A DNA stretch of 64,000 bases from positions 122,180 through 186,179 of the forward strand of contig CAZHDZ010000002.1 of NCBI GenBank assembly GCA_964531275.1, given 5' to 3'. Made by a program: the position numbers and the translations under genes. Source of the DNA: an uncultured Gammaproteobacteria bacterium (lineage in GTDB: Bacteria > Patescibacteriota > Microgenomatia > Levybacterales > GWA1-39-11). This document shows positions 691 through 14,359 of the stretch, one piece after another (within the stretch, counting starts at the first letter, position 1; each line of letters opens with the position of its first letter). The notes beneath the pieces were generated by a model. The model had not been told where the DNA came from. It did no database searches and saw only the letters and a list, made by a program, of their open reading frames with translations.

Positions 691-1611
691 ATGGATGTAC
701 AAGGAAATCTTCTGATTCTATTCGCGGTAATTATAGTAGCCTTCTTGGCTTTAGATCTTGGATACTTCAACAGGAAAGCACATAAAGTAACACCAAAAGC
801 AGCTCTCATACAGTCAATTTTCTGGGTAGGGGTTTCTATCGCCTTTGCTTTTTTAATAGCAATTTACATGGGGCAAAAAGTTGCGGTCGAATTTATGAGC
901 GCGTACGTCACAGAAAAAATGCTGTCTGTAGATAACCTTTTTGTCATAATGCTTATTTTTAATTTCTTCAAAATTGAGGAGAGATTTCATCATAAGGTAC
1001 TTTTCTGGGGAATTATGGGAGCAATTGTTTTTCGTGCAATTTTTATTCTATTGGGAGCATTTATTATTCATAATTTCAGCTGGGTTCTTTATGTATTCGG
1101 AGCGATACTCGTGTATACAGGTATCAAGTTATTTTCTGACAAAAAGGAAGAACATGTTGATTTCAATAATAATCGCGCGGTAAGAATTACTAGAAAATTT
1201 CTTCCGATAACAAGCGATTACCATAATGGTAAATTTTTTACCAGAAAGAAAGGCAAAATTTTATTCACAGAGCTAGTGCTTATTATCGTACTTGTTGAGG
1301 CTACCGATATTGTTTTTGCTATAGATTCTATTCCTGCTGCATTTGCTATTTCTCAAAATCCTTTCATTGTTTTTACTTCTAATATTTTTGCGATTATGGG
1401 ACTAAGAGCTCTGTTCTTTTTGCTTCAGAATGTTATGGATAAATTTCATCATCTACAGAAAGCTTTATCTTTTATTTTAGTTTTTATTGGTGGAAAGATG
1501 CTGCTAGGAATTTTTCATCTTCATTTAGACTCATTAGTATCTTTCGGGGTTATTATGGCCGCCCTTATTATTTCACTTATTACATCTGTACTTTTCCCCA
1601 AGAAAGTCTAG
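691..1611 (+). CDS. TerC family integral membrane protein
   Basis: ORF track 673..1611 uses a TTG start; the ATG at 691 gives MDVQGNLLILFAVIIVAFLALDLGYF. The protein has multi-TM TerC-like composition and the DxxxD/LSVDNLFV-type motifs typical of TerC/Alx. Confidence 0.7.
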   Translation: MDVQGNLLILFAVIIVAFLALDLGYFNRKAHKVTPKAALIQSIFWVGVSIAFAFLIAIYMGQKVAVEFMSAYVTEKMLSVDNLFVIMLIFNFFKIEERFHHKVLFWGIMGAIVFRAIFILLGAFIIHNFSWVLYVFGAILVYTGIKLFSDKKEEHVDFNNNRAVRITRKFLPITSDYHNGKFFTRKKGKILFTELVLIIVLVEATDIVFAIDSIPAAFAISQNPFIVFTSNIFAIMGLRALFFLLQNVMDKFHHLQKALSFILVFIGGKMLLGIFHLHLDSLVSFGVIMAALIISLITSVLFPKKV

Positions 1612-2168
1612 AGGTAGCTGTCAAAAGGAACTGCTGTCTCTCCTCTAAATACCATTCCTGATGTAGATGAGCCTATTGGTAATGTTGCTAGAGCAACTAC
1701 TTTTGCCGCAACCTCCTCAGGAAGCCTGTCTCCACCTGGGTTCATGTTGGTTTTGACTTTGCCTGGGTCCAGAGCATTTATAAGTACTCCATTGTGTGTT
1801 CTTTTTAATTCGCCTGCTAAAGAAGCTAGATAATAAAGTTCTGCAGCCTTAGACATTCCATATCCAGCCCCTCCTTTTGCACCAACCTCCTCAAGAGCTC
1901 TTTTATAGCTTCCCCAACTTCCAAACATCTGAACAATTCTTCCATAATTTGCTTCTTGCATCGCTGGCAAAACAGCTTGTGTCATATTTACAGAACCCAA
2001 TGTGTTCACTTCAAGCTCCTGTCTTATTACATCTATTGATACTGTAGATGCTTTTACGTTGCGGTCTTCTTGAGGAAATACAACGGCACAGTTAACGAGA
2101 ACATTTGCTCCTCCATTTCTCGCGTAGACCCTTCTTGCCAAGTTCTTTACTGCATGCTTAGTTGTCAA
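1608..2168 (-). CDS. SDR family oxidoreductase, C-terminal portion only (N-terminal Rossmann segment missing; probable gene remnant)
   Basis: 186 aa containing NCAVVFPQED, the YGMSKAA (YxxxK) active-site motif and LINALDPG, but no TGxxxGxG NAD-binding N-terminus. Local GC is clearly higher than the surroundings. Confidence 0.5.
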   Translation of the reverse strand: MTTKHAVKNLARRVYARNGGANVLVNCAVVFPQEDRNVKASTVSIDVIRQELEVNTLGSVNMTQAVLPAMQEANYGRIVQMFGSWGSYKRALEEVGAKGGAGYGMSKAAELYYLASLAGELKRTHNGVLINALDPGKVKTNMNPGGDRLPEEVAAKVVALATLPIGSSTSGMVFRGETAVPFDSYL

Positions 2169-2212: not shown

Positions 2213-3334
2213 TTAACTAGTTGCGGGTTTGCTTCCGCTATTGCCCCCAAAGCCAAATCCTTGATCTAGCTTGTTGTTGACACGATTTGATACAAAATCT
2301 CTAAAAACTCCCCGAATTTTACCCGGGATATTGGCTTCATCTGGTTTGTCATATAATCCATCTAGCCCTACAGCTTGCAATACTCCTTCTCCCAGCAAGC
2401 CATATCCTGTGTTTCCGGGCAACACATTTAAAGCCTTAGTTGCTGCACGAGCAGTAGCTCGTTCAACCCATGTCTCATTTGGAGCCCCCAACTCTAACAG
2501 TAATTTACCCAGATTTTTTGTATTGCTCCCAACAGCAGCATGAGAAAGTTTTACAACTTCTTTTTTAAGAGCCGATAAATCACCATCAGACATTGCAAGT
2601 AGCCACCCATCAGCTTTTGCTGACAATTCTGGAACAAGTATATTTCCTGGCAATTTAAAACGTCTTAATGCTTCCCCAACATATGGAATTAGACCAGTAT
2701 TTTGCTCAACTTGCATTGCCGTCATGTCTCTATACCATTTTGTATGCAATGCTTCTCTTACACCTACTCTTCTTACCATTTCTCCTGCCTCCGGGCTTGC
2801 GTCTCTTAAGATCTTATCCTCCAAGTGGTACCAATTACGTGTTAAAAGTTCCTGAGCCATACCAAATGTTGTTAGCTGAACGGGTTTATCACCTGATTCA
2901 TGTATATAATCAAGACTTTGTACTCTAGCTACTTCAGCTTGAATTACGTCTTGAGGAACACCCATCTGCATAAGTATTAGTTGAAAAGGTGTTGAGTGGC
3001 CCTTTTCATCAGGTTCCCAGACATTTCGAGTAAACCTTGTAAGCCAAGGTGCGTTGTGAGCATCTCCTGCTTTTGCAAATTCGTCTGCGTACTGTGTCGT
3101 TGCGCATTCAGTTAATGCAGACAACCAGTTAATATCTTGGAAATCCTTTACTGATATTCCGTTAGGTAGACTATCAAGTGCTGGTGCAATATTTATTCGC
3201 GAAGAAAGATCTAGAAGAACATTCGGTTGCAAAAAACCTGCTGGAGCTGTTGCTTCCAAATGGCTAACATAACCTTCAAGCCCTTGCGCAGTGCTTGTTG
3301 AAGTTGGAGAACCATTGCCTATTATTTCAGACAT
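2213..3334 (-). CDS. hypothetical protein (higher-GC, likely horizontally acquired); function not recognised
   Basis: 373-aa ORF with no motif I can assign. Codon usage and GC differ from the neighbouring AT-rich genes. Confidence 0.45.
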   Translation of the reverse strand: MSEIIGNGSPTSTSTAQGLEGYVSHLEATAPAGFLQPNVLLDLSSRINIAPALDSLPNGISVKDFQDINWLSALTECATTQYADEFAKAGDAHNAPWLTRFTRNVWEPDEKGHSTPFQLILMQMGVPQDVIQAEVARVQSLDYIHESGDKPVQLTTFGMAQELLTRNWYHLEDKILRDASPEAGEMVRRVGVREALHTKWYRDMTAMQVEQNTGLIPYVGEALRRFKLPGNILVPELSAKADGWLLAMSDGDLSALKKEVVKLSHAAVGSNTKNLGKLLLELGAPNETWVERATARAATKALNVLPGNTGYGLLGEGVLQAVGLDGLYDKPDEANIPGKIRGVFRDFVSNRVNNKLDQGFGFGGNSGSKPATS

Positions 3335-3396
3335 AGTATATGTTATCAGATAGATCTCTAGGTAATGAGAATTTTGATATATAATAATTTTTTCAT

Positions 3397-4533
3397 ATGA
3401 ACTACATAGAGGTTATTGATGAGATATTTAGCCAATTCAAAGGGCAAAAGTTTGCTATAAAATTTTGGAATGGCAAAACAATTCAGTATGGTTCCGGAAA
3501 ATCGCCAGCTTTCACTTTAATTTTCAAAGATGAAGTAACGGTTCAGAGATTGCTTGGTCAGGGTTCATTAGGTTTTGGAGAATCCTACATGGATGAGTCC
3601 TTACAGATAGAGGGTGACATTGAAAGCTATCTTCGCATGCGTCACCAATTCAAGCATATAAAGCCTTCTCTTCGTCTTGCCATTGCGCGAATTCTATCCA
3701 ACAAGCCAAGGCATAAAAGTCGCAAAGATCAAATTTCACATCATTACGATTTGGGTAATGATTTTTTTAAATTAATCTTAGACAACACAACCATGATGTA
3801 CTCATCAGCTTTCTATAAAAATGAAAAAGAAAAATTAAATAGTGCTCAAACAAACAAAATAGAATTTATTTGTAAGTGGCTTGATCTACCAAGTAATTCA
3901 CAAGTTCTCGACCTTGGATCCGGTTGGGCAGGATTTGCAAAAATAGCAGCTCAAAAATTTAAGTGGAATGTTATTGGGCTCACATTAAGCCAAGCGCAGC
4001 TTGCCTATTCGCAGGATCTAACTGAAAAAGAAAAATTGCAGAAGAAAGTAGTATTTAAAGAGCAAGATTTTGTAAAAGCTTTACCGTCAAAAAAGTTTGA
4101 TGGAGCGGTAATTATTGAATCTATAGAGCATGTTGGACAAAATAATCTTCAAAAATTCTTTAAGGATGTAGCAAAAGTTCTAAAATCAGGAGCACCTTTT
4201 ATCATTCAGACAACCGGAAGATACGAAATTCACAGAGTAGATAAGTGGACATTGAAGTATGTATTTCCAGGAGGTTATCTTCCAAGTAAGGGAGAGCTGT
4301 TGAAGTATGCTCAGGATGCAGGATTTACTGTCGAGCTTTTCCGCGATGATACAGATGACTACATTCGTACCATGACGATATGGATACAAAATCTGGAAAA
4401 GAATCAAAAGACAATTGAGAAAATGTTTGACAAGTCATTCTATAGACTATGGTATCTATGGATGCATGGAGCAAAAGTTAATTTTGAAATAGGAGACATG
4501 AGTCTTTTTCGAATAAAGTTGCGTCGAGCATAA
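3397..4533 (+). CDS. cyclopropane-fatty-acyl-phospholipid synthase family SAM-dependent methyltransferase
   Basis: HYDLGNDFFKL...MMYSSAFY and the VLDLGSGWAG SAM-binding motif, with overall length typical of the CFA synthase / mycolic acid methyltransferase family. Confidence 0.75.
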   Translation: MNYIEVIDEIFSQFKGQKFAIKFWNGKTIQYGSGKSPAFTLIFKDEVTVQRLLGQGSLGFGESYMDESLQIEGDIESYLRMRHQFKHIKPSLRLAIARILSNKPRHKSRKDQISHHYDLGNDFFKLILDNTTMMYSSAFYKNEKEKLNSAQTNKIEFICKWLDLPSNSQVLDLGSGWAGFAKIAAQKFKWNVIGLTLSQAQLAYSQDLTEKEKLQKKVVFKEQDFVKALPSKKFDGAVIIESIEHVGQNNLQKFFKDVAKVLKSGAPFIIQTTGRYEIHRVDKWTLKYVFPGGYLPSKGELLKYAQDAGFTVELFRDDTDDYIRTMTIWIQNLEKNQKTIEKMFDKSFYRLWYLWMHGAKVNFEIGDMSLFRIKLRRA

Positions 4534-4577
4534 CAAGTGATTGAGAAATGTAAGGATTTACTGTAATAATCAACTAT

Positions 4578-5429
4578 ATGGACCCTCAAGCACAACAGCC
4601 AACAGCTCAACAAAATCCTGTCCCAACCACCGATTCTATTGCTATATCATCTATTCCTGCTGAAATTCCGAAGAAAGTAAAAAGATTTGAACTCTTGATG
4701 TATATTGGAATTGGATTAAGTCTTCTTACTTCGTCGTCATTTTTCCCATTCCTTCTCTTTGGCCTTGGGCTTGTATATTTAACTGTCAGAAAAAAAATAC
4801 CTTGGGCAAGAACAGCCCTGACAGTAGTGGTTGCTTTCGGTGTTTTTTCGACGTTACTGAGCATGGGAGGAATGCTTTACAACTTTAATCTTATTTATCT
4901 TATTGCCTTGCCTACCGCTTTTATTCAGGTTTATGCCATGTGGCTTATTTATTCAAAAGAAGCTAATCAGTGGATCTATGGCGACTATTCATTGCCAGGG
5001 GCAACGCAACCTACTGTTAGTAGAATTTGGCAAAAAACCATCCCGCTTACTAATCTCATCTTTTTAATAATTTCTGCTATTGCTGTTTTTGGTGTGGATT
5101 TTATTATTCTTATTAATTCTTTTGAGCTTCTTCCTTTTTGGATCGAAATGCTAGTAGTATTTGCAGTTTTTATGATCTTTTTTTATCTTGAGAATTACAG
5201 ATTCAAGTCGAAATTTTCAGATTCGTTTTCCTGGGCAGATAACGGTATTTATTCATTAGTACTTATCAGGAATATAATTCTTTTCTTAAATTTCATACCA
5301 TTCATTCAGATTGCAGGTGCATTAGCAACGGCGGTTGGAATCATTCCCTACATTATTATTTATTCAGTCCTAATTAATAAAAGAGACAAGATTGGTGTAG
5401 TTAACGCTTCTACAAATAATTCATTCTAA
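4578..5429 (+). CDS. hypothetical 8-TM membrane protein, paralog A (MDPQ-family)
   Basis: 283 aa with a Q/P-rich N-terminus followed by TM helices. The C-terminal half (LLPFWIEMLVVFAVFMIFFYLENYRFKSKF...LNFIPFIQIAGA) is nearly identical in pattern to the 5881..6786 product. Confidence 0.6.
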   Translation: MDPQAQQPTAQQNPVPTTDSIAISSIPAEIPKKVKRFELLMYIGIGLSLLTSSSFFPFLLFGLGLVYLTVRKKIPWARTALTVVVAFGVFSTLLSMGGMLYNFNLIYLIALPTAFIQVYAMWLIYSKEANQWIYGDYSLPGATQPTVSRIWQKTIPLTNLIFLIISAIAVFGVDFIILINSFELLPFWIEMLVVFAVFMIFFYLENYRFKSKFSDSFSWADNGIYSLVLIRNIILFLNFIPFIQIAGALATAVGIIPYIIIYSVLINKRDKIGVVNASTNNSF

Positions 5430-5516
5430 AACAGTAAATTCATGAAGAATCAATACAAACTAGGTTCATCACAGTCTACCCGTAATGGTTCACTGCGTGA
5501 TATGGTGTCTCCTTAA

Positions 5517-5828
5517 ATGCCAGGAAATATTAAAATTTCCAGAGCCCAAATAATTCTAGGAGTTGTTTTTAATGTTCTAAGTTTTTTGATTTTAATATTA
5601 GCCATTAGGGGAAGTTTTGAGATAAAGGATTATGTAGGGGCGCTTCTTTGGAGTTTGGTCTGGGCAACACCTCTTTTGCTTGGAAAGCTTTTTGTTGCTT
5701 ACTTAGCTATTCGTAAAAACTTAAATACCTTAAGAATTCTGCTGTTGCTTTGGTTCTGCTTGGACATAATCGCTTTTTTGATAGTACTTCTTTATATGGA
5801 CTTTTTCCGTGTGTTGAAGTACTTTTAA
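5517..5828 (+). CDS. truncated paralog of the MDPQ-family membrane protein (N-terminal half only)
   Basis: The 103-aa LLGKLFVAYLAIRKNLNTLRILLLLWFCLDIIAFLIVL aligns to AVGKLVLVHFFLRKRSNVIRILLLGWVCLDMIIVM of the 5881 gene. The conserved C-terminal half is absent. Confidence 0.4.
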   Translation: MPGNIKISRAQIILGVVFNVLSFLILILAIRGSFEIKDYVGALLWSLVWATPLLLGKLFVAYLAIRKNLNTLRILLLLWFCLDIIAFLIVLLYMDFFRVLKYF

Positions 5829-5880
5829 TTTCTTAGCCCAAGAAGTAACTATCTTAGGCAAGCAATGTGTAGTAAATCTA

Positions 5881-6786
5881 ATGGATCCACAGACCCAAAT
5901 TATTCAACAACCTGTCCAACAAAATTTACCAGAAGGTAAGATCCATGCAATGCCTAGAGCTATGATTTTATTCTCATTCTTAATGTATGTGGGTGCATTT
6001 TTGAGTATAGTTGGTCCTCCCATGATGCTTAAGATGTTGGATTCTGGTTTTTACTCTTCAAGAACAAACGATCAGGCATTATTCCTAAGCGCTTTAGTTA
6101 TTGTACCGTTTGCAGTGGGAAAGTTAGTGCTTGTACACTTTTTTTTGAGAAAGAGAAGCAACGTAATAAGAATTTTATTATTAGGGTGGGTTTGCTTGGA
6201 TATGATCATTGTGATGGCAAATTCGCTTGGTAGCGCTGGTAGTTTTATGGCTCCAATGTTCATTCCGTTTCTTGCTCCTCTTGTTCAACTTATTTCACTC
6301 TTTTTTCTTTTCAGTGCCAGCTCTAGAGAATGGTTCATAACAGGGTTTTCTAGTACATCAGAACTTTCGAGGAGGTATTGGTACAAAATTATACCGAAAA
6401 CAAACATTGTATTTCTGGTACTGTCCTGCATCTTAGTATTTGGGCTAGACTTGTTAATCTTATTGTCTTCACCTATGCTTTTTCCTTTTTGGATTGAAAT
6501 GCTTGTCGCTTTTGGAGTCTTTATGGGATTCTTCTATGCGGAATGCTACACCTTTAGATCTAAGTTTTCTCAATCTTATTCAAGCGTTGATATCCCACTG
6601 TACTGCCTAATAGTTCTACGAAATTTTGTTCTATTCCTCAACTTTATTCCTTTAATTCAAATTATTGGTGCTATATTATCTGCAGTGGGTATTTTGCCTT
6701 ATCTTATTGTGTATGTGATATTAATTAGGATTCGAAATAAAGAAACTATGGTTGCGCCAGTAGCTATTCCTCAACCTCAGCCCTAA
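5881..6786 (+). CDS. hypothetical 8-TM membrane protein, paralog B (MDPQ-family)
   Basis: 301 aa; the same start (MDPQTQ) and the same C-terminal FPFWIEMLVAFGVFMGFFY...LNFIPLIQIIGA block as the 4578 gene. Confidence 0.6.
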   Translation: MDPQTQIIQQPVQQNLPEGKIHAMPRAMILFSFLMYVGAFLSIVGPPMMLKMLDSGFYSSRTNDQALFLSALVIVPFAVGKLVLVHFFLRKRSNVIRILLLGWVCLDMIIVMANSLGSAGSFMAPMFIPFLAPLVQLISLFFLFSASSREWFITGFSSTSELSRRYWYKIIPKTNIVFLVLSCILVFGLDLLILLSSPMLFPFWIEMLVAFGVFMGFFYAECYTFRSKFSQSYSSVDIPLYCLIVLRNFVLFLNFIPLIQIIGAILSAVGILPYLIVYVILIRIRNKETMVAPVAIPQPQP

Positions 6787-7493
6787 AGCTTGCTAGCCTT
6801 TGACATTACCAATTCTGCTGCTACTTCAAATTCGTTACGTAATTTGGTAACTTTTACTTTTTTGGGATCTTTAAAGATATCCTTCGGATAAAGCGGCTTA
6901 CCAAAGGCAAAAATAATTTTCTTTTTTCCAGAAAGAATATTTGGGATAGTAAAATGTTCAGTGCCTGAAATTTTGACTGGAATTATTGGCAAACCCGTTT
7001 TGTAGCTTAAGAATGCTACTCCCCCTCTTGCCTTAGGTTTCTTAATATCACGAGTTACCCTGCCATGTGGAAATATACCTACGTTTCTCCCCTCTTTGAG
7101 AATCTGAAGATGATGAGGAAGGGCTCGTTCGTAGTCCTTAAGACCTTTATATGTTGGATATGCGCCAATTAACCTAAAGAAAAAACCTCCATAAAAGAAA
7201 TTTTTCCAGAACCCTAGGTATTTGTAGCTTGCCAAGGAGACATAGATTACTGGAAAATTTTTTGATAAGAACGGCAGAACAGATACCATAAGGAGTGGAT
7301 CCATTTCACTTAGGTGATAAGGCGCAAATATTGCATTGCTCTTGAGTCTTTCAACGTTTTTTATTCCTTTAATTTGAAGCGAGCAAAACAAAATCATAAC
7401 CGTTCTTAGCGGGAGCCAAACTGCTCGTTGAAAAAATATAGGGGAGGTGTATTTGTTCATTTTGAAAATGACTATTGACAGAAGAATTTGCAA
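6783..7493 (-). CDS. lysophospholipid (1-acyl-sn-glycerol-3-phosphate) acyltransferase, PlsC family
   Basis: HxxxxD-type block (APYHLSEMDP) and FPHGRVTRD (the FPEGTR-equivalent) characteristic of PlsC/LPLAT acyltransferases. Confidence 0.6.
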   Translation of the reverse strand: MQILLSIVIFKMNKYTSPIFFQRAVWLPLRTVMILFCSLQIKGIKNVERLKSNAIFAPYHLSEMDPLLMVSVLPFLSKNFPVIYVSLASYKYLGFWKNFFYGGFFFRLIGAYPTYKGLKDYERALPHHLQILKEGRNVGIFPHGRVTRDIKKPKARGGVAFLSYKTGLPIIPVKISGTEHFTIPNILSGKKKIIFAFGKPLYPKDIFKDPKKVKVTKLRNEFEVAAELVMSKASKL

Positions 7494-7514
7494 TGATTAC
7501 ATTTTATATACACC

Positions 7515-8162
7515 ATGAATTTGTTAGTAACATTATTTTTTCTTCAGAACATTATAGTAACAACTCTTCTTGGTTACAAATTCTTTTCTCAAAAAAACCC
7601 AGTATTTAAGAATTTTGGCATTGCCTTATTCCTAAATGCAGTAGCATTTGCTATTTGGTCATATGCAATTATCACCCAAGCCTCAGATCTAGGATTTTAC
7701 GTAACTGCTGGTGCTGCACCATTTATTGGATCCTTAGTTTTTTTAATGTTGGTAAGTGCGCAAAAAGTAAGCGAATCAATGAGAAAGAATCTTGTTATTG
7801 GATCTGCGGTAGTAGGTTTGGTGCTATTTGCTTTAAGAACTTTTGTATATCCATCAGCTCCTTCAATTTCTGAAGAAGGTTTGTTCTTCTTCAACTTACA
7901 CCCGATAATTCAAATGTTGTACGCCTTGGGCTTAGGATTTACTGCCATTCCAGCTATTAGTTTTGTGGCCGCAAAATTTAAAGGCAGATATTCTGCTATT
8001 GTGCGTTACGGATTTCTTTTAGAGGTAATTGGCGGAATTCTGCTTATGACAACATCTAATACATTCATGCTTTATATTTTGGGTTGGGTAATGGGTATTA
8101 CTTATTTTGTCCTGTGTGTTACTCTCGTTTTTAATAAAAAAACTTGGTCTCTATCCAATTAG
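7515..8162 (+). CDS. hypothetical multi-TM membrane protein
   Basis: 215 aa, about 6 hydrophobic helices, no recognisable motif. Confidence 0.45.
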   Translation: MNLLVTLFFLQNIIVTTLLGYKFFSQKNPVFKNFGIALFLNAVAFAIWSYAIITQASDLGFYVTAGAAPFIGSLVFLMLVSAQKVSESMRKNLVIGSAVVGLVLFALRTFVYPSAPSISEEGLFFFNLHPIIQMLYALGLGFTAIPAISFVAAKFKGRYSAIVRYGFLLEVIGGILLMTTSNTFMLYILGWVMGITYFVLCVTLVFNKKTWSLSN

Positions 8163-8224
8163 TATTCTGCCACTCTTCCTCTGCTAGAATAGCATACCTT
8201 TATGAAAGTTCTACATATAGGTTT

Positions 8225-8251
8225 ATGAAAATTTTACTTATACGACTATGA
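8225..8251 (+). other. 8-codon uORF (MKILLIRL) whose TGA overlaps the ATG of the downstream gene (ATGA) and which mimics its N-terminus (MRILLTG)
   Basis: atgaaaattttacttatacgactatga versus the gene start atgagaattttgcttactgga. Confidence 0.35.
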
Positions 8252-9186
8252 GAATTTTGCTTACTGGAATTTCAGGTAATTTAGGTTATGAAGTAGCTAG
8301 TGAATGTATTAAGAAAAATATTGAGATAATTCCTCTTGTGAGAAATAAGATATCAGTAGAGGAGTTATTTGACGTGAGTATATTCCCCGAAATCATAGAA
8401 ACAGATCTCTTAAGTGACCAAAAAATAAATCTTAGCTCATCAGTTGACGCAATTGTTCATTGCGCGGGAATTGTGCATTTTAAGAAAGCAGAGAATAATA
8501 ATGAGAAAATGCTCACAAAAATGATTGAGCTTGCTAAATGTATTGATGCCCCACTTTACTTTGTGAGCACAGCTTTTACCTTTAGGCCTCACAATGAGAA
8601 CTTTGTCCCGAATAACTCATACGAGCAAGACAAGTATAACTGCGAGAAATTGCTTAAAAATTCAGACATTCAACATTCCATAATAAAACCTTCTGTTCTT
8701 ACTGGCAGCAGTACAGACGGCTCTATAAGAAATTTTACAGGCTACTACTCTCTTCTTAAGGGTCTTTTGCAATACGCTGATATCTCTAGTAATAATGGAA
8801 TCAAATTAAGAGTTCCAAGATTCACGGGTTACTCAGACATTGTTCCTATTGATTTAGTTGCGCAAGAGATTGTTGGAATGGTGAAGTCACATACGCTTAA
8901 CGAATTGTATCTAACAAACATGAATCCACCTAAAGCGATGTGGCTATTTTCTGAGACGTTAGATTACTTTAACCTTTCTGAAGTCGTATCGATGGTAGAC
9001 ATGTCATTTGATCAATTTGGTAAGTTAAAATTGACTAAGGAAGAAAAGGAATTTCGTGAATTTAGCCAACACTTTTTGCCATACTGGGAACTTGGTTATA
9101 ATTTCCCTAATTCTGCGTTAAAGAATGCGTCTGTAGATAGAACTTATTTAAAGAAAATATTAGACTATTTTATATTACATAATTGA
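8248..9186 (+). CDS. NAD(P)-dependent epimerase/dehydratase or thioester-reductase-like extended SDR
   Basis: N-terminal LLTGISGNLG Rossmann motif and a YEQDK YxxxK motif. Confidence 0.6.
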   Translation: MRILLTGISGNLGYEVASECIKKNIEIIPLVRNKISVEELFDVSIFPEIIETDLLSDQKINLSSSVDAIVHCAGIVHFKKAENNNEKMLTKMIELAKCIDAPLYFVSTAFTFRPHNENFVPNNSYEQDKYNCEKLLKNSDIQHSIIKPSVLTGSSTDGSIRNFTGYYSLLKGLLQYADISSNNGIKLRVPRFTGYSDIVPIDLVAQEIVGMVKSHTLNELYLTNMNPPKAMWLFSETLDYFNLSEVVSMVDMSFDQFGKLKLTKEEKEFREFSQHFLPYWELGYNFPNSALKNASVDRTYLKKILDYFILHN

Positions 9187-9189
9187 TTA

Positions 9190-10272
9190 ATGAGTAAAGA
9201 AATTATTAACTATAGTCAATGTTGGGAAGATCCCACCATTCTTCTTAGGGCACTAAAGATATCAAAAAATGACATTGTTCTTTCGATAACTTCAGGAGGA
9301 GATAATACTTTGTCGATCGTGTCAAAGGATCCTAAGAAAATCGAAACAATTGATACCAATAGTGCTCAAAATTATCTTTTTGACCTAAAACTTTCCGCAA
9401 TACACTCCTTAAGTTATGATGAAGTACTTGAGTTTTTGGGGTTATCAGATTCTACTGATCGTATAGGGCTTTTTAAAAAACTTAAAGGAAATTTAAATTC
9501 AAAATCATTCAGTTGGTGGTTAAGTAAACCAACTCTTATTGAAAAAGGAGTAATTCATGTAGGAAAGCTTGAGCGCTTTCTCAATGGATTTCGAAGATTT
9601 GTGCTTCCTTTAATTCATGCCCAGAGTACCATAGAAGAATTTTGCTCGCAGGTAACACTTAGGAGGCAGCAAGTTTTTTACGCAAAATTTTGGAATACGT
9701 GGAAATGGAGAGCGTACTTCAAGATTTCGTCTCACCCTTTTGTTCTTAATCGCTTTGCAAGACAAAAAGAAATGACTTCCAACGTATCAACAGGAATAGT
9801 TACAACTAAATACTTTGATCGGCTTGAAAAAAGTCTTAATCAACAGCTCCTCTCAAATAACTATTTCATGACGTATTGCCTGAAAGGAAGCTTTTCAGAC
9901 ACTAAGCCGCACTATTTGAATGCAGACTCTTACAACAATATTAGAGCTTCCAAAACAGCAATAAATGTTACAACCATAGACGCTCTATCCTTTCTTAAAT
10001 CCGCAAAGACTAATACTTTTTCGAAATATAATCTATCCGACATCTTTGAGGCATTACCCCCAAAAGAATATGAAATGCTTTGGGAAGAAATAGTTAGAAC
10101 TGCTAAGAATAACGCTACTGTTGCCTACTGGAACAATCTTATAAAGAGACCTCTACCTTACCATTTGAAGCAAGTTGTTAGGGAAGACATGCGTCTGTCA
10201 AAAGTGTTAAGTAATCAGGATAGAGTCTTTTTTTATGACGGCTTTCACGTATGCACGATAATCAAGAAATGA
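9190..10272 (+). CDS. DUF3419 / BtaA-like protein (SAM:diacylglycerol 3-amino-3-carboxypropyl transferase family)
   Basis: N-terminus INYSQCWEDPTILLRALKISKNDIVLSITSGGDNTLS...IDTNSAQNYLFDLKL matches the BtaA/DUF3419 signature (YxQxWEDP ... SGGxN ... D-N-AQ ... LKL) as I recall it. Confidence 0.55.
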   Translation: MSKEIINYSQCWEDPTILLRALKISKNDIVLSITSGGDNTLSIVSKDPKKIETIDTNSAQNYLFDLKLSAIHSLSYDEVLEFLGLSDSTDRIGLFKKLKGNLNSKSFSWWLSKPTLIEKGVIHVGKLERFLNGFRRFVLPLIHAQSTIEEFCSQVTLRRQQVFYAKFWNTWKWRAYFKISSHPFVLNRFARQKEMTSNVSTGIVTTKYFDRLEKSLNQQLLSNNYFMTYCLKGSFSDTKPHYLNADSYNNIRASKTAINVTTIDALSFLKSAKTNTFSKYNLSDIFEALPPKEYEMLWEEIVRTAKNNATVAYWNNLIKRPLPYHLKQVVREDMRLSKVLSNQDRVFFYDGFHVCTIIKK

Positions 10273-11147
10273 AAAACAACCTATTTTATAAATTTTATGT
10301 GTATCAAAATGAGCGATTTCCTCTGATTGTGCTTGCAATAAGTTTGCTTCCTGCAGTTCTTAGCTCTAGTGTAATTGTAGAAAGTGCAGCTTCCGTGCCC
10401 AAGATAGGACTGACAGTTTTAATCGCAATACTTTATCTGCTTCACGTACGTTTGTTAGATGATAGACGGGATTTTTTGCATGACAATAAATTTCACAAAG
10501 ACCGTCCTGTTCAGATGGGAATTATTTCTAAGAAAGAGCTTATCTCTATAGATATACTTATAGTCCCACTATTAGTTCTTCTTGCACTTCTTAGCGGACC
10601 ATTGGCATTGCTCCTCATGCTACTTCTCATATCCTTTTCTTACTTTGCAGAGCAAAATTTTCATATTGGATCATTTCTGAGCCGACACTTCTTCCTCTAC
10701 AACTTGTTGAATACGTGTCAGACGATTGGTTTGCAAATATTTATATACTTTTTCCTCAATAGTAAATTAGAAATTAACAATCTTTTGTTTTTACATTTTC
10801 TTTTTACTTGTCTCGGTACCCTAGTATTCGAATTTGCACGGAAAGTAAAACGGCCTGGTAAAGATGGTTCTGGAAAAGACACCTATACTCACTTCCTGGG
10901 TTTTAGAAAGTCTATTTTTGCTTACTTGTTCTTATGCTGTATCAATTTGAGCATTTTTCTAGCCATTGCAACAATCATTGCTAAAGATAGTTCAGGCATA
11001 GTTGTGGGCACTATTTTGGCTGCTATCTTAATTTTAGGCACATCCATATTCCACCTTAAGAAGAAGGAAGCGTATTCTGAAAAAATAATGCAGCTATCCT
11101 TCATTTTGTCTTATGCAGTATGTAATTTAGTAATTTTTCTCTTATGA
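10269..11147 (+). CDS. UbiA-family prenyltransferase-like membrane protein
   Basis: LDDRRDFLHDNKFHKDRPVQMGIISKKE parallels the UbiA motif NDxxDxxxD...RP...G, and the protein has 7-8 TM helices. The ATG at 10269 overlaps the upstream stop (ATGA). Possibly a DGGGP-synthase-like enzyme. Confidence 0.5.
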   Translation: MKNNLFYKFYVYQNERFPLIVLAISLLPAVLSSSVIVESAASVPKIGLTVLIAILYLLHVRLLDDRRDFLHDNKFHKDRPVQMGIISKKELISIDILIVPLLVLLALLSGPLALLLMLLLISFSYFAEQNFHIGSFLSRHFFLYNLLNTCQTIGLQIFIYFFLNSKLEINNLLFLHFLFTCLGTLVFEFARKVKRPGKDGSGKDTYTHFLGFRKSIFAYLFLCCINLSIFLAIATIIAKDSSGIVVGTILAAILILGTSIFHLKKKEAYSEKIMQLSFILSYAVCNLVIFLL

Positions 11148-12733
11148 AACAATATTTTGACAGCGCAAATATTGCGGAGAGTTATTCTGGGATTGTTCTT
11201 CCCCTAACATCCTCCTTTGCCAAAATGGTTTACTCTCGTGTATACAGAGATTTGCTTAAAAAATCTGGAATTTCTGACAAGAAAGTCGAGTCATATAGAC
11301 ACATATTTGATGGGCTACTCGCATTTTTTTATGGGCGGATGTATTACAACATGAATAACTGGTATTTAATGGCGGCTTTTGCACCGGGATATAAAGCGAA
11401 TAAGAAAAATTTTGAAAGAATGATTACGAGTAATATAAAAGAGGAAATTGTTACCTCTATTAAGCCCTCTCTTCTATATAGACTCATATATCCTGAAATC
11501 CTAACATATAAAATTATTACGTATGGTTACAACGCTAAAAGATTCAAACTAACAGTCAGAAAAAAAATGAAAGCACTAAATGAATTGGATTTCGCAACAC
11601 TTTCCTACAAAGAATGCATTCAGCTTTTTGATCGAATCAATAAAGACTTTCTTAACAAATGGTACGTAGCTGTTGAAAACGATTTTTTTGTTATGACTTA
11701 TCTAGGAATTCTCAGTAAATTACTCACTGAGCAAGAATTTCAAAAAGTACTTACCTTCAAAAGTAAAGCCACAGAACAGGTTCAAGAAATAATTCAGTTA
11801 AGTAGTGAAATGGGAAAAGTAAAACTCTTGTGGAATGCAATTTTGAAGAATAATGAAAAAGAATTCTGGAAGCAGCTGTCTCTTAATCCTAAGATTAAAA
11901 GAATGTACAAGAACTATTCAGTAACTTTTGGAGGTAGATTCGCAAATGAACTAAAACTGGAATCTATTGGTGCAGACGAAGATATTACAAAACTTTTTGA
12001 CACTCTCAAAATGTATAGAAATTTTAAAATAGAACATTCTGTCCAAAGAGAAATTGGCATAACATCTAGAAAAAAAATGCTCGTTCAATTAATTCTAGGG
12101 CAATTTAAAAAATATGCTTCTCAGCGTGAAGAATTTAGGTTGCTACGGTCAAACACATATGGTTTGACCAGAAAGCTCTTTCGCAGAATGGGACAAATTT
12201 TAGTTGAGAAGAATCTTATTTCTTCAATTGATGACGTATTTTATTTAGAGCTCAATGAGCTATTGTCTGATTCAATATTACAAAATAAAAAGCTTAAAGA
12301 TATTATCTTAAAGAGAAAAAAAATATATGAAGAATATAAAAAAATTACTCCTCCAAGTCATTTTGAGACTGAAAACAACAAACTTCCAAAGCTTACAGAA
12401 AGAAAAACTATAAAAACCAAGATCATTCAAGCAAGGCCAGCATCTCCTGGAATTATTAGGGGGAAAGTAAGGGTTTTTAAAGATTTCTATATGCCAGATA
12501 AAATCGATTTTGATATTCTTGTTACCTCCCATACCGATCCTGGTTGGACTTCTCTAATGGGGCTTTCAAAAGGGATGATAATTGAGCATGGAGGGATACT
12601 TTCTCATGCATCAATTGTTGCAAGAGAGCTAAAAATTCCGGCTGTGATAGGCGCCATCGATGCTGTAAGCTTCCTACAGAACGGACAAATAGTCGAAATT
12701 GACGGCTCAACGGGAGTAATTAAAATACTTTAG
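11144..12733 (+). CDS. protein with a C-terminal PEP-utilizing-enzyme mobile (phosphohistidine) domain and a novel N-terminal region
   Basis: The C-terminus ARPASPGIIRGKVRVF...LVTSHTDPGWTSLMGLSKGMIIEHGGILSHASIVARELKIPAVIGA is the conserved His-swivel domain of PEP synthase / PPDK / rifampicin phosphotransferase. The N-terminal roughly 430 aa were not recognised. Confidence 0.6.
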   Translation: MKQYFDSANIAESYSGIVLPLTSSFAKMVYSRVYRDLLKKSGISDKKVESYRHIFDGLLAFFYGRMYYNMNNWYLMAAFAPGYKANKKNFERMITSNIKEEIVTSIKPSLLYRLIYPEILTYKIITYGYNAKRFKLTVRKKMKALNELDFATLSYKECIQLFDRINKDFLNKWYVAVENDFFVMTYLGILSKLLTEQEFQKVLTFKSKATEQVQEIIQLSSEMGKVKLLWNAILKNNEKEFWKQLSLNPKIKRMYKNYSVTFGGRFANELKLESIGADEDITKLFDTLKMYRNFKIEHSVQREIGITSRKKMLVQLILGQFKKYASQREEFRLLRSNTYGLTRKLFRRMGQILVEKNLISSIDDVFYLELNELLSDSILQNKKLKDIILKRKKIYEEYKKITPPSHFETENNKLPKLTERKTIKTKIIQARPASPGIIRGKVRVFKDFYMPDKIDFDILVTSHTDPGWTSLMGLSKGMIIEHGGILSHASIVARELKIPAVIGAIDAVSFLQNGQIVEIDGSTGVIKIL

Positions 12734-12734
12734 T

Positions 12735-13739
12735 ATGAAGATAAAAATCTACAAAGCAGAAGTGAATTTGCCAGCTGCTCTACTCGGTTTTTTAGATAGG
12801 ACTTATGGCACTCATAAGAATTACGACCTTTTTTTGAACGATTTTAAAAAAGCTTTTGCTTACTGCGTTGAGAGTAGCAATATAAAGTTTATTCCATTTA
12901 TTATTGAGAAAGACAAGGAAATGTTGGGTCACATTTCTTTAATCCTCGATCAACGATTGGGTCCAGCTACAGCTTTTTTCGGATTTTTTGAACTGGTGAA
13001 TGATAAAGCAGTATTTGATCTATTGTGGACAGAGCTTTGTAGTGAGGCGAAAAAGAAGGGTATTAAAATGCTTTTGGGGCCTGTTAATGGAAGTATTTGG
13101 CATCAGTATAGGAACATTAGTAAAAGTGATACCTCTGAGTATTTTAATTCTGAACCGATGAGTCAAAAGCATTACTTCGCTTTTCTTAAAGGCAGCAATG
13201 CAATAAAAGAAATAGAATATCATTCTGCATATCGAGAGAATTTTGCTGCCGTAATGTCTAAAATTAAGACCTCGGAAAGTATTCTTAAAGACTCTGGTTT
13301 TACTATAGAGCAGGAGGAAAAAATGGACCTAGGAAAGCTTATTAAGATTGCACATCTCTCAAAAACAGTTTTTTCTAAAAGTTGGGGATTTACAGAATTA
13401 ACAAAAGAAGAATTTTTAAAGCTCTATCCATCAGACAAAATTGAAGAAAATCTTAACAAGCTCTATATTCTTTACAAAAGAGAAGAAATTATTGGTTACT
13501 GTAGCACTATTATTGAAGATAAAGATACATTAATCTGTAAGACTATATGCATACTACCTGAGTATCAGGGGCTGGGATTGGGAAATGCCCTTGCCTTTAG
13601 AGTACATAAAGATGCAATTTCTGATGGATATTCTAAGATAATATACGCTTTGGTAAGAACAGATAATAAAATTAAGAATTTTCCTCAAAATGATGTTGTT
13701 ATTTTTAGAAACTACTCCACTTTTGAATTTAAAATATGA
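12735..13739 (+). CDS. GNAT-fold acyl-CoA N-acyltransferase-like protein (tandem GNAT halves)
   Basis: The C-terminal CILPEYQGLGLGNALAF block is a GNAT motif A-like Q/RxxGxG/A. A 334-aa length suggests a FemAB/MprF-C-like double GNAT. Confidence 0.4.
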   Translation: MKIKIYKAEVNLPAALLGFLDRTYGTHKNYDLFLNDFKKAFAYCVESSNIKFIPFIIEKDKEMLGHISLILDQRLGPATAFFGFFELVNDKAVFDLLWTELCSEAKKKGIKMLLGPVNGSIWHQYRNISKSDTSEYFNSEPMSQKHYFAFLKGSNAIKEIEYHSAYRENFAAVMSKIKTSESILKDSGFTIEQEEKMDLGKLIKIAHLSKTVFSKSWGFTELTKEEFLKLYPSDKIEENLNKLYILYKREEIIGYCSTIIEDKDTLICKTICILPEYQGLGLGNALAFRVHKDAISDGYSKIIYALVRTDNKIKNFPQNDVVIFRNYSTFEFKI

Positions 13740-14359
13740 ATCTAGCATTCTTCGGTTTTCTTGTCATGTCAATTGCTATTTTATTTATTTCTGAAATTGC
13801 CAGAAGAAAGCTAAATTTGCCTACGGAAATAACAAGAAGAGCTACACATGTAGTTGCTGCATTTATTGCTGCGATTTCCTCTCTATTCTTAGATAAATGG
13901 TTAATTGTAGTAGGATGTCTACTGTTTGCTGGAATAATGTTCTTATCTCGAAGAACAAGCCTTTTTAACTCTATACAAAAAGTAAAAAGAAAATCTTTGG
14001 GTGAAGTGTTCTTACCATTAAGCGAGGCAATAACAGCTTTAATTTTCCTGCCCATAGGACGGATCGAATTTCAGTATGGAGTGCTTGTCATGGGTCTTTC
14101 CGATCCTCTTGCTGGATTTATAGGAACGCGTTTTGGAAAACACGAAATTAAAATATTAGGAAACACAAAAAGCCTCGAGGGGTCACTTTCTTTCTTTCTA
14201 TGTACATTGATGTTGACACTTGTCTTTGCTCCCACGATAGGAATTAACTTACTAATCCTGCCCTTGTTATTAACGCTTATAGAGATTTGCCTAGGCTATG
14301 GTACAGACAACCTTGTGCTCCCTATCGCAGGAGCTACTCTGCTAAGTTTTTGTATATAA
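13736..14359 (+). CDS. CTP-transferase-1 superfamily membrane protein (polyprenol/phytol-kinase- or CdsA/CarS-like)
   Basis: GLSDPLAGFIGTRFGKHEIKILGNTKSLEGSLSFF resembles the VTE5/Sec59 GDxxAxxxGxxxGxxK...KSxEGS motif. 207 aa, multi-TM. The ATG overlaps the upstream stop. Confidence 0.45.
   Translation: MNLAFFGFLVMSIAILFISEIARRKLNLPTEITRRATHVVAAFIAAISSLFLDKWLIVVGCLLFAGIMFLSRRTSLFNSIQKVKRKSLGEVFLPLSEAITALIFLPIGRIEFQYGVLVMGLSDPLAGFIGTRFGKHEIKILGNTKSLEGSLSFFLCTLMLTLVFAPTIGINLLILPLLLTLIEICLGYGTDNLVLPIAGATLLSFCI

Follow-up and report, generated by a model that had tools for sequence, protein, structure and literature searches.

The 64-kb window analyzed here is the whole stretch of 64,000 nucleotides taken from contig CAZHDZ010000002.1 (positions 122,180 to 186,179), and near its start, at positions 3397-14359, it carries a compact cluster of genes for predicted lipid enzymes and membrane proteins. 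The window is AT-rich, with a guanine plus cytosine (GC) fraction of 0.33-0.40 throughout. Twelve open reading frames (ORFs) of at least 100 aa were counted in the cluster, where a preceding sequence-only reading had claimed thirteen genes; 11 are on the plus strand and one (6783-7493) is on the minus strand.

The last five genes, all on the plus strand and referred to below as the core, encode a DUF3419/BtaA-family protein (9190-10272, Pfam DUF3419), a predicted UbiA-superfamily intramembrane prenyl/alkyl transferase (10269-11147, Pfam UbiA), a phosphohistidine enzyme of the rifampin phosphotransferase (RPH)/PigC type which lacks its ATP-grasp domain (11144-12733, NCBIfam PRK06241.2-2 and Pfam PEP-utilizers; the kinase in what follows), a predicted tandem GNAT N-acyltransferase with a coenzyme A (CoA) motif in its C-terminal half (12735-13739, Pfam Acetyltransf_1 and structural modelling) and a membrane protein of 207 aa assigned, through its orthologues and its fold, to the phytol/dolichol-kinase type (COG0170-like) of the CTP-transferase superfamily (13736-14359). 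ATGA start/stop overlaps were found at 10269, 11144 and 13736, and the intergenic gaps at 9186/9190 and 12733/12735 are 3 nt and 1 nt, so that the tightly coupled string proposed earlier for 9190-14359 was confirmed, with three ATGA overlaps and the remaining two junctions of 1-3 nt. It is the UbiA start at 10269 that creates the first overlap; an alternative start at 10251 is also possible. A promoter and terminator scan gave nothing above shuffled expectation.

Upstream of the core are genes for a CMAS-family methyltransferase, two paralogous polytopic membrane proteins with a short related ORF, a PlsC-type acyltransferase, a 215-aa membrane protein and an extended short-chain dehydrogenase/reductase (SDR). 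Families were assigned by profile searches against Pfam and NCBIfam, and all of those named in the sequence-only reading (CMAS, PlsC, SDR, DUF3419, UbiA, PEP-utilizer, tandem GNAT and CTP-transferase superfamily) stood up to profile or fold tests; in particular, the proteins at 9190 and 10269 both matched their Pfam families.

Conservation and distribution of the cluster

A scan of GTDB species representatives gave 42 loci, in which gene content was scored by tblastn with the window proteins. Twenty-eight loci have the complete five-gene core, which in 26 of them is colinear on one strand; these complete-core loci came from Patescibacteria and from Bacteroidales metagenome-assembled genomes (MAGs). 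Of the 32 non-Bacteroidota loci most are from Patescibacteria, and many are truncated by the end of a contig; CMAS and the small membrane protein family were each found in 16 of the 32, the SDR in 18, PlsC in 24 and the 215-aa protein in 25. The 11 Bacteroidota loci contained the five-gene core only. The core is conserved across phyla, and Patescibacteria add to it CMAS, PlsC, SDR and two membrane-protein families. Homologues of the kinase number hundreds, and almost all come from MAGs of Patescibacteria (Davies-, Levy-, Pacei-, Kaiser-, Staskawicz-, Taylor- and Saccharibacteria); the closest of them (66% identity) lies in a locus with an identical gene set and order. Judged by its nearest homologues, the window probably derives from a member of the Patescibacteria. 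Chance juxtaposition or mis-called ORFs were ruled out by synteny in more than 40 loci; the genes are syntenic elsewhere, and from its recurrence in dozens of independent contigs at 30-70% protein identity the arrangement is not due to chance.

Two cultured organisms were found with related loci through the best DUF3419 matches in a plasmid collection, which were to Brevibacillus laterosporus B9 (33.6% identity) and Roseinatronobacter sp. S2 (29%). The Brevibacillus locus (NZ_CP011076 459505-478563), on a 1.4-Mb secondary replicon, has the same core gene set in a different order and comprises a 3-hydroxy-3-methylglutaryl (HMG)-CoA reductase homologue, UbiA, the kinase (892 aa), DUF3419, a 439-aa protein, the tandem GNAT, a CoA ligase and a P450. 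Of the genes flanking this core, one encodes an HMG-CoA reductase of class I (1.6e-117) and another a member of the fatty-acid CoA ligase family (1.8e-120); the third is that for the P450. This stretch carries no annotation in its record. Roseinatronobacter has a partial version of the core on plasmid NZ_CP121116, where genes for UbiA and for a PEP/pyruvate-binding protein of 808 aa occur with those for DUF3419, a membrane protein of 439 aa, a GNAT-like protein of 281 aa and a member of the fatty-acid CoA ligase family. Here the UbiA and PEP/pyruvate-binding genes rest on the annotation of the record and the DUF3419 and GNAT-like genes on tblastn; tblastn with the window UbiA gave no match on this plasmid, and the match to the kinase-like last gene was weak (blastp 1.2e-11). 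Both loci differ in order from the window in that UbiA and kinase precede DUF3419, and in both the phytol-kinase-like domain forms the N-terminal half of the 439-aa membrane protein, which has an extra C-terminal transmembrane region.

When the GNAT was used as a marker, 52 clusters (50% identity, E<=1e-30) were found among 1.84 billion representatives. The cluster is not universal, and from this count it is an accessory trait of a subset of organisms.

Some further genes were observed around the closest relatives. In these (L002-L004) a fused CTP_transf_like and DUF359 gene (3001-4002) lies directly upstream of CMAS, and it is absent from the window. This fusion could provide the last two steps of CoA synthesis (phosphopantetheine adenylyltransferase and archaeal-type dephospho-CoA kinase) beside enzymes which use acyl-CoA. 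The flank of L002 (14.9-22.3 kb) also contains genes for type IV secretion (TrbL, TrbC, VirB4-like) together with a diversity-generating retroelement, made up of a reverse transcriptase gene and bAvd, and none of these is present in the window.

Enzymes encoded in the cluster

The DUF3419 protein matched PF11899 at 2.3e-68 (231.6 bits against a cut-off of 28.2) over profile positions 10-384 of 385, and has 16 invariant columns (including WED, GxN and D55) in common with two BtaA proteins linked to btaB, from Chondrinema and Rhizobium. Identity to these two proteins was only 23-25%; each of their genes is followed by a class I methyltransferase gene, and no BtaB-type gene was found in the window cluster or in the related loci examined. 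A PDB sequence search was uninformative. From these alignments the window protein belongs to a subfamily distinct from btaB-linked BtaA, and it is a putative S-adenosylmethionine (SAM)-dependent 3-amino-3-carboxypropyl transferase acting on a lipid hydroxyl. The earlier description as a BtaA homolog held for the family, the full length and the invariant positions, and has to be narrowed to a separate subfamily which travels without BtaB. The comparison with the btaA-btaB operon for diacylglyceryl trimethylhomoserine (DGTS) of alpha-proteobacteria and Bacteroidota therefore runs both ways, as the full-length protein with its shared positions makes transfer of the aminocarboxypropyl group from SAM onto a lipid hydroxyl plausible here, whereas in place of BtaB the window subfamily is always accompanied by the other four core proteins (UbiA, RPH-like kinase, tandem GNAT and phytol-kinase-like protein), and N-acylation of the amine is predicted instead of N-trimethylation.

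The UbiA protein matched PF01040 at 4.2e-11 (43.1 bits against a cut-off of 34.2) over residues 32-283, and has about seven hydrophobic segments. The first Asp-rich motif, D70-x3-D74-x3-D78, is invariant in 28 orthologues and reads LDDRRDFLHD in the window protein. In the region of the second motif two residues (R197 and K198) are invariant and two more (E194 and D210) almost invariant. The family profile found a single solved relative in PDB, digeranylgeranylglyceryl phosphate (DGGGP) synthase 6M31 (7.7e-8), and NCBIfam prenyltransferase equivalogs scored far too low (26 bits for a cut-off of 443 and 20.9 bits for one of 269). The suggestion of a DGGGP-synthase-like UbiA was thus borne out for the family, the first motif and the nearest structure, while the equivalog scores speak against a closer identification; the second motif is atypical. 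Archaeal DGGGP synthase is the closest solved relative and shares the conserved first motif, but the window protein is far below the equivalog cut-offs, and the cluster has neither a geranylgeranylglyceryl phosphate synthase nor a glycerol-1-phosphate dehydrogenase. A bacterial route to archaeal-type ether lipids is known from Bacillus, where it involves PcrB, YvoF and heptaprenylglyceryl phosphate, and together with the DGGGP route it offers a precedent for prenyl ether formation followed by acylation.

The protein encoded by the last gene had no Pfam match even at E<=1, and a PDB sequence search was uninformative. Five of 29 orthologues matched CTP_transf_1 (PF01148), with a best value of 5.9e-5; a few homologues hold a precomputed PF01148 assignment and many were automatically named phytol or dolichol kinase by JGI. 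An AlphaFold2 (AF2) model with a mean confidence (pLDDT) of 95 gave as its only meaningful structural match the CDP-diacylglycerol synthase CdsA, 4Q2E. The invariant motifs RxxxH, D123, KSxEG and DNxxxP resemble those of the kinase branch of the CTP_transf_1 superfamily. As modelled, the protein belongs to the CdsA/dolichol-kinase/phytol-kinase superfamily, with the kinase assignment being putative, and the earlier placing of this gene in a VTE5/Sec59/CarS-like CTP-dependent family was supported by the fold, with profile matches in a minority of orthologues.

Residues 3-529 of the kinase aligned to positions 322-890 of the 898-position NCBIfam model PRK06241.2-2 ('PEP synthase') at 4.5e-86. 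The protein also matched the NCBIfam RPH, PigC and RedH models, far below their equivalog cut-offs, and Pfam Rph_4th was found on close homologues. The best PDB matches to the family profile were 5FBS and 5HV1 (3.6e-73), which we take to be Listeria rifampin phosphotransferase structures deposited as 'phosphoenolpyruvate synthase'. RPH-type enzymes place the beta-phosphate of ATP on a histidine and then transfer it to a hydroxyl. The PEP-utilizers swivel domain (3.8e-21) takes up residues 457-524 of 529, right at the C-terminus, the catalytic-His motif GGILSHASIVARE is kept with its His invariant in 20 homologues, and the window protein retains all family-invariant residues, including the His of GGxLSHASIVARE. 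Unlike PEP synthase and pyruvate phosphate dikinase proper, it gave no match to PEP-utilizers_C, the PEP/pyruvate-binding TIM barrel. The sequence-only reading had seen only the phosphohistidine swivel domain; the protein is instead the substrate-binding region plus swivel of a truncated RPH/PigC-type enzyme.

The truncation is well defined. Orthologues are of about 758 aa with an N-terminal ATP-grasp domain (PPDK_N) which is present in about 90% of close orthologues, and the window kinase corresponds to residues 231-758 of one 758-aa orthologue (P0003), with residues 1-229, the ATP-grasp, missing. When the N-terminal 235 aa of P0003 were used in tblastn, no ATP-grasp sequence was found in the 64-kb window (best E 0.94), and an independent Logan assembly of the source reads gave an identical UbiA-kinase junction. 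A missing half located elsewhere in the window or behind a frameshift was rejected on these two results and on the overlap of UbiA stop and kinase start. Of 118 close homologues 10 have the short form, and the nearest relatives of each of these are long forms (58-80% identity). In four other loci inspected (L047, L051, L052 and L053) the overlap of the short kinase gene with the stop of UbiA is preserved. That short-form loci other than the window might encode the ATP-grasp as a split-off gene was also considered and rejected, as the candidate ORFs encode a ferritin-like di-iron protein (L048) and a radical SAM enzyme (L035). Judged by these alignments, the loss of the ATP-grasp is a recurrent and precise domain loss.

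Relative to rifampin phosphotransferase and PigC/RedH, most orthologues have the same architecture of ATP-grasp, substrate-binding region and swivel His, but their ATP-grasp is shorter (about 229 aa) and the window kinase has none; the window kinase also lies in a lipid cluster, and its presumed substrate would be a lipid hydroxyl or phosphate. A metagenomic protein of 1002 aa (P0372) consists of a full-length kinase (50% identity to P0003) fused to a tandem GNAT (49% to the window GNAT, without its first approximately 65 residues), and this single representative supports, as a Rosetta-stone fusion, a probable functional link between kinase and GNAT. The window kinase further matched NCBIfam PRK05865 ('sugar epimerase family protein', 854 aa) at 1.8e-22, a model we take to correspond to Rv2047c. 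Located beside pks12 in M. tuberculosis, Rv2047c has been proposed to release and phosphorylate the mycoketide alkyl chain by means of a thioester reductase and a PEP swivel (PMC2443190). The pairing of a thioester-reductase-type SDR with a PEP-utilizer swivel is common to both systems, but Rv2047c is one fused protein with a proposed function while in the window the two are separate genes parted by DUF3419 and UbiA.

The GNAT matched Acetyltransf_1 at 5.3e-10, with the match confined to the C-terminal half. Its AF2 model (pLDDT 88, predicted TM score 0.86) aligned in Foldseek over its full length with tandem GNATs 2WPW, 5KF1, 7Q3A and 1OZP at TMq 0.56-0.64, a group comprising a clavulanate-pathway tandem GNAT, C. 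acetobutylicum glucosamine N-acetyltransferase, MAB_4324 and MshD, compared with TMq 0.35-0.45 (E about 1e-9) against MprF/FemX. In the CoA motif QGxGxG, G281 and G283 are invariant within EYQGLGLGNAL, and no match was obtained to Pfam DUF2156/LPG_synthase_C. The earlier view of a double GNAT of MprF size and fold class was right about the tandem GNAT and not about the MprF type: the C-terminal aminoacyl-phosphatidylglycerol synthase domain of MprF shares the tandem-GNAT fold class and the size, but the window protein has the CoA-binding motif, a lower TMq to MprF and no DUF2156. As the CoA motif is kept and the fold is closer to acetyl-CoA tandem GNATs, enzymes which acylate amines, aminoacyl-tRNA chemistry of the kind used by an MprF-like aminoacyl-lipid synthase is not favoured.

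The CMAS-family protein (3397-4533, plus strand) matched Pfam CMAS at 1.6e-65 and the N-terminal domain of cyclopropane fatty acid (CFA) synthase, DUF7884, at 7.1e-18. Its residues 20-373 align with CFA synthase 5Z9O, full-length similarity extends to 7QOS and 6BQC, and it scored 225.7 bits against the NCBIfam CFA-synthase equivalog, below the cut-off of 400. The pocket is non-canonical: the His of LLHTIG is replaced by Q in 17/17 sequences (IIQTTG in the window) and the Cys of YSCAYF by S or A in 16/17 (YSSAFY in the window), with L028 keeping the Cys. This His and Cys are, we assume from the E. coli and CmaA1 structures, the bicarbonate ligands required for cyclopropane formation. Because they are replaced, and since the IE(S/A)IEH plus Q pattern matches that of hydroxymycolate synthase MmaA4 (2FK7), the window protein is doubtful as a bona fide cyclopropane synthase. 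It is predicted to be a lipid-olefin methyltransferase with a non-canonical pocket, for which a methyl-branching or hydroxylating outcome would be at least as likely as a cyclopropane. Accordingly, of the earlier acyl-chain methylase/cyclopropanase assignment the CMAS family with its CFA-synthase N-domain was retained and cyclopropanation was placed in doubt. The protein resembles CFA synthases and mycolic-acid methyltransferases over its full length, including the N-terminal lipid-binding domain, and differs from CFA synthases in lacking the canonical pocket His and Cys, while the IE(S/A)xEH...Q pattern is shared with MmaA4, which makes no cyclopropanes.

The PlsC-type lysolipid/glycerolipid acyltransferase (6783-7493, minus strand) matched Pfam Acyltransferase (PF01553) at 4.3e-13 (49.7 bits against a cut-off of 23) and has its HX4D motif as HLSEMD at residue 60. 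The motif is present in 23/24 orthologues, and position and orientation of the gene are unchanged in 24 loci. The extended SDR (8248-9186, plus strand), of predicted thioester-reductase or fatty-acyl-reductase type, matched NAD_binding_4/Epimerase at 2.5e-13, TIGR01746 at 5.7e-12 and PRK07201 at 1.3e-12, with GxxGxxG and YxxxK in 18/18 orthologues; a PDB sequence search with it was uninformative.

In a number of loci an additional gene is present in a slot between UbiA and kinase, which is either empty or holds a radical SAM enzyme or a ferritin-like di-iron protein. Radical SAM genes occupy it in three Patescibacteria loci (L035 3775-4962, L013 8835-9989 and L015 8854-9984) and lie upstream of DUF3419 in five Bacteroidales loci (L022, L023, L037, L040 and L045); these enzymes are 42% identical between Patescibacteria and Bacteroidales, and their best NCBIfam match was to Tes, tetraether lipid synthase, far below cut-off. 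An ORF of 190-204 aa for a ferritin-like di-iron protein is found in the slot in five loci (L048 at 9394-10008, L046, L021, L041 and L034). The mutual exclusion of the two suggests oxygen-independent and oxygen-dependent alternatives for one oxidative modification of a hydrocarbon chain.

The proposed pathway and its alternatives

We consider it highly probable that the region is a conserved cluster for biosynthesis or remodelling of a lipid. The combination of UbiA-type alkyl or prenyl transfer, a SAM-derived head group and N-acylation on one molecule is put forward more tentatively, and the exact order and substrates of the steps given below are unlikely to be correct throughout. Taken as a whole, an operon-like cluster which makes or remodels a membrane lipid by the proposed pathway is our best explanation, to which we assign a probability of roughly 0.4. 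Family membership, the close and ancient linkage of the core, the kinase-GNAT fusion and a recurrent association with enzymes for activation and reduction of carboxylic acids (the SDR, or the CoA ligase with the HMG-CoA-reductase homologue) or for chain tailoring are shown, and the steps proposed from them follow the most economical scheme in which each core enzyme acts once.

In this pathway an isoprenoid or other allylic long-chain alcohol would be salvaged, or would arise by four-electron reduction of an activated acid, carried out by the SDR here and by the fatty-acid CoA ligase and HMG-CoA-reductase homologue in Brevibacillus. The alcohol would then receive two phosphates, one through the CTP-dependent kinase-like membrane protein and one through the phosphohistidine enzyme, which, like rifampin phosphotransferase, would pass on an ATP phosphate by way of its His; as the window kinase is without an ATP-grasp, this second step would need a phosphoryl donor in trans or would be lost. 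UbiA may use the diphosphate to alkylate a glycerol-type acceptor with formation of an ether bond, as in DGGGP synthase, and PlsC may esterify a free hydroxyl with an acyl chain, presumably derived from the host. The DUF3419 protein would move the 3-amino-3-carboxypropyl group of SAM onto the remaining hydroxyl, as BtaA does on diacylglycerol, and the tandem GNAT would N-acylate the new alpha-amino group from acyl-CoA. Finally a chain double bond would be tailored by the CMAS homologue, by methylation, or elsewhere by the radical SAM, di-iron or P450 enzyme. The predicted product is a phosphorus-free N-acyl-homoserine-type glycerolipid with an ether-linked chain.

The presence of HMG-CoA reductase and CoA ligase beside the Brevibacillus core, DGGGP synthase as UbiA relative and the automatic 'phytol kinase' names add to the evidence for a lipid, and the ATGA coupling from DUF3419 to the last gene and the kinase-GNAT fusion link the core genes to one pathway. 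A system for building and decorating a lipid with an isoprenoid link and a SAM- or amino-acid-derived head group, as the sequence-only reading had it, is consistent with all that was found. The same reading had called this system self-contained, which it is not, as the cluster has no fatty-acid, isoprenoid or glycerol-backbone synthesis.

In its working the proposed pathway appears most like a hybrid of phytol salvage with UbiA transfer, BtaA-type head-group attachment and N-acylation. In plants and cyanobacteria phytol is salvaged by VTE5 (a CTP-dependent phytol kinase) and VTE6 (phytyl-phosphate kinase), which supply a UbiA-type prenyltransferase. Here too a CTP-transferase-family lipid-alcohol kinase and a second phosphorylating enzyme are predicted to supply a UbiA transferase, but the second enzyme is of the RPH/PEP-synthase phosphohistidine type and not VTE6/DUF92, and there is no tocopherol or chlorophyll context.

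A number of points weigh against this interpretation. Each step beyond the family assignments is inferred. The patchy distribution fits an accessory and not a core membrane function. CMAS, PlsC and SDR are absent from the Bacteroidales, Brevibacillus and Roseinatronobacter loci, and this extension may therefore be a separate but co-located function. About 10% of orthologous kinases, the window's included, lack the ATP-grasp and are otherwise conserved, which is awkward for an obligatory ATP-dependent step, and neither a phosphatase nor a glycerol-phosphate enzyme was found in the cluster. The divergence of DUF3419 may allow other chemistry, for example methylation, and the last gene could be a cytidylyltransferase (CdsA/CarS-like) instead of a kinase. 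The second motif region of UbiA (FEFxRKxKxPGxDGxGKDTY) has no canonical DxxxD. UbiA enzymes require an allylic or otherwise stabilized diphosphate donor; a saturated fatty alcohol diphosphate would be a poor one, and bulk synthesis of isoprenoid alcohols is not known from Patescibacteria.

The first of two doubtful alternatives is plain betaine- or homoserine-lipid remodelling of host-derived diacylglycerol or lysolipids. The DUF3419 protein would then act as BtaA on diacylglycerol or monoacylglycerol, PlsC would re-acylate, the CMAS enzyme would be an N-methyltransferase (a BtaB analogue) or an acyl-chain modifier, and UbiA, kinase and phytol-kinase-like genes would serve separately, for instance in polyprenyl phosphate recycling. 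The full-length DUF3419 with the invariant positions of btaB-linked BtaA and the intact HX4D of PlsC agree with this, as do the N-methyltransferases included in the CMAS family (CNMT, TNMT and PavNMT among the PDB matches) and the enrichment of betaine lysolipids in fractions of the candidate phyla radiation (CPR), where they correlate with CPR taxa (PMC7242380). However, the five core genes travel together across four phyla without CMAS or PlsC, and with their translational coupling and the fusion of kinase and GNAT they look like one pathway. Moreover no BtaB-type methyltransferase is present, whereas canonical BtaA genes have one next to them, and the CMAS protein keeps the lipid-binding N-domain of CFA synthases, to which it is much closer (3.5e-55) than to N-methyltransferases (about 1e-14).

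An alternative of similar standing, again unlikely, is a specialized (secondary) metabolite such as a signal, surfactant or antibiotic of the prenylated N-acyl-homoserine type that would be produced at the membrane and then exported. The patchy cross-phylum distribution, suggesting horizontal transfer, the plasmid location in Roseinatronobacter, the secondary replicon with adjacent P450 and CoA ligase in Brevibacillus, and a variable tailoring slot (radical SAM, di-iron, P450) typical of natural-product clusters would all fit, and RPH/PigC relatives act in antibiotic inactivation and prodiginine biosynthesis (NCBIfam RedH and PigC matches). Such a role sits less easily with the retention and high conservation of an 11-kb cluster in many Patescibacteria whose genomes are very small, or with the PlsC-type acyltransferase and the five or six integral membrane proteins which it encodes, and in the loci examined no non-ribosomal peptide or polyketide synthase, exporter or regulator is consistently linked to it.

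Less probable still is a polyprenyl-phosphate carrier-lipid pathway for envelope glycans, with a polyprenol kinase, a UbiA similar to decaprenyl-phosphate phosphoribosyltransferase using phosphoribosyl pyrophosphate, and the remaining enzymes decorating a lipid-linked head group. Enzymes of the decaprenyl-phosphate phosphoribosyltransferase type do belong to the UbiA superfamily, the second UbiA motif is atypical, the family of the last gene includes dolichol and polyprenol kinases, and glycosyltransferases are abundant further downstream in the window; but in no locus are sugar-nucleotide, glycosyltransferase or flippase genes inside the cluster or consistently adjoining it, acyl lipids are indicated by PlsC, by the CFA-synthase-like enzyme and by the fatty-acid CoA ligase, and the closest solved relative of UbiA is DGGGP synthase.

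Equally improbable, and compatible with any of the other explanations, is decay of the cluster into a non-functional state in this genome through loss of the ATP-grasp, to which the lack of kinase residues 1-229 with no ATP-grasp sequence in 64 kb, the duplicated membrane-protein gene and the 103-aa fragment would point, but all 12 ORFs are intact, the short kinase keeps its invariant positions and 4-nt coupling to UbiA, the clean truncation recurs in at least nine other lineages nearest to long forms with the cluster otherwise complete where checked, and the independent assembly gives the identical junction.

Returning to the membrane-lipid pathway which we prefer, our literature searches (DUF3419 with UbiA; Patescibacteria or CPR lipids; BtaA or betaine lipid in CPR; aminocarboxypropyl with prenyltransferase and PEP synthase) gave no description of this gene combination, in line with the earlier remark that it is not a described operon. 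A paper on the lipocone superfamily mentions Patescibacteria and not these genes. The cluster is apparently an undescribed lipid pathway, widely conserved and built from known enzyme superfamilies. As context and SIGNIFICANCE, no complete lipid pathway is present in CPR genomes according to Probst et al. (PMC7242380), and CPR bacteria are described as devoid of lipid biosynthesis. In the CPR-enriched sub-0.2 um fractions of this study, the only in-situ lipidomic one, lysolipids made up 31% of intact polar lipids, all with betaine head groups, and abundances of Falkow-, Kaiser- and Parcubacteria correlated with lyso forms of DGTS, of the hydroxymethyl-trimethyl-beta-alanine lipid DGTA and of the carboxyhydroxymethylcholine lipid DGCC, the biosynthetic genes not being identified and BtaA not being mentioned (PMC7242380). 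A 2024 review states that the mechanisms of lipid uptake and breakdown are still unidentified in Patescibacteria (PMC11665869). As a BtaA-family enzyme and a lysolipid-type acyltransferase are conserved in these lineages, the cluster offers a direct and testable lead on CPR lipids.

A conserved cluster of 10-12 genes is a concrete genetic handle on how membranes are built or remodelled in tiny CPR genomes, and its chemistry is open to ordinary genetics and lipidomics through Brevibacillus laterosporus, which is cultivable and has the core, and through Roseinatronobacter sp. S2 with its partial version. The enzymology could be new in respect of a phosphohistidine enzyme acting on a lipid, the recurrent loss of ATP-grasp and a BtaA subfamily coupled to N-acylation. 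At its most specific the proposal is a long shot: a route in Patescibacteria and scattered other bacteria to an ether-linked, phosphorus-free glycerolipid, in which a scavenged fatty or prenoic acid (possibly 2-enoyl) would be reduced, converted to the diphosphate by an unprecedented pair of CTP-kinase and swivel enzyme, transferred by UbiA to glycerol, capped with SAM-derived homoserine and N-acylated. If true, these 'lipid-auxotrophic' bacteria would be active lipid builders, and the cluster would be the genetic source of the betaine-type lysolipids in CPR-enriched samples.

Membrane proteins and neighbouring genes

The two polytopic membrane proteins, of 283 aa (4578-5429, plus strand) and 301 aa (5881-6786, plus strand), are paralogues with 36% identity (3e-55), and about 7-8 hydrophobic segments were counted in each in a crude hydropathy scan; the sequence-only reading had described a tandem family of proteins with eight transmembrane segments. 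The C-terminal approximately 130 aa of the 283-aa protein are kept at a matching position in 16 Patescibacteria loci. Between the two genes a 103-aa membrane ORF (5517-5828, plus strand) resembles the N-terminal part of the 301-aa paralogue (BLASTP 5e-9 to residues 55-109); no orthologue of it was found elsewhere, and it is possibly a duplication remnant. The 215-aa membrane protein (7515-8162, plus strand; about 6-7 hydrophobic segments) is conserved, being present in 25/32 Patescibacteria-type loci with 19 invariant positions. Neither the 215-aa protein nor the 283/301-aa family nor a 373-aa protein encoded upstream of the cluster had a reliable match in profile searches against Pfam and NCBIfam.

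The gene for this 373-aa protein (2213-3334, minus strand), which has two ExxH motifs, is a candidate accessory gene whose membership is uncertain. In one locus (L043) an orthologue with 39% identity immediately follows the final gene of the cluster; this orthologue has a weak FA_desaturase_2 match (E 0.044), and an E..H..W.RD motif (E 0.03) is common to the 373-aa protein and the 204-aa di-iron ORF of other loci. Local GC is raised at this gene (0.39), and a fragment of it is found upstream of the cluster in L002-L004. From these motifs the protein may be a ferritin-like di-iron, oxygen-dependent desaturase or hydroxylase of the system. Immediately downstream of this gene is a short-chain dehydrogenase ORF (1608-2168, minus strand) which covers only positions 59-187 of adh_short and is missing its NAD-binding N-terminus; this may be a pseudogene or a disrupted gene.

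On the other side, 5.5 kb downstream of the cluster, the ORF at 19859-21202 encodes a UbiH/VioC-type FAD-dependent monooxygenase. It also matched the geranylgeranyl-reductase family, but more weakly (64.7 bits, the cut-off being 158.8), and no conserved link between this ORF and the cluster was seen in the other loci. Further downstream, a block of envelope and glycan genes (34017-62114) includes several ORFs of 475-870 aa without a Pfam match, a polysaccharide deacetylase (40948-42540) and at least three large family-2 glycosyltransferases (34017-35504, 46744-48864 and 59670-62114).

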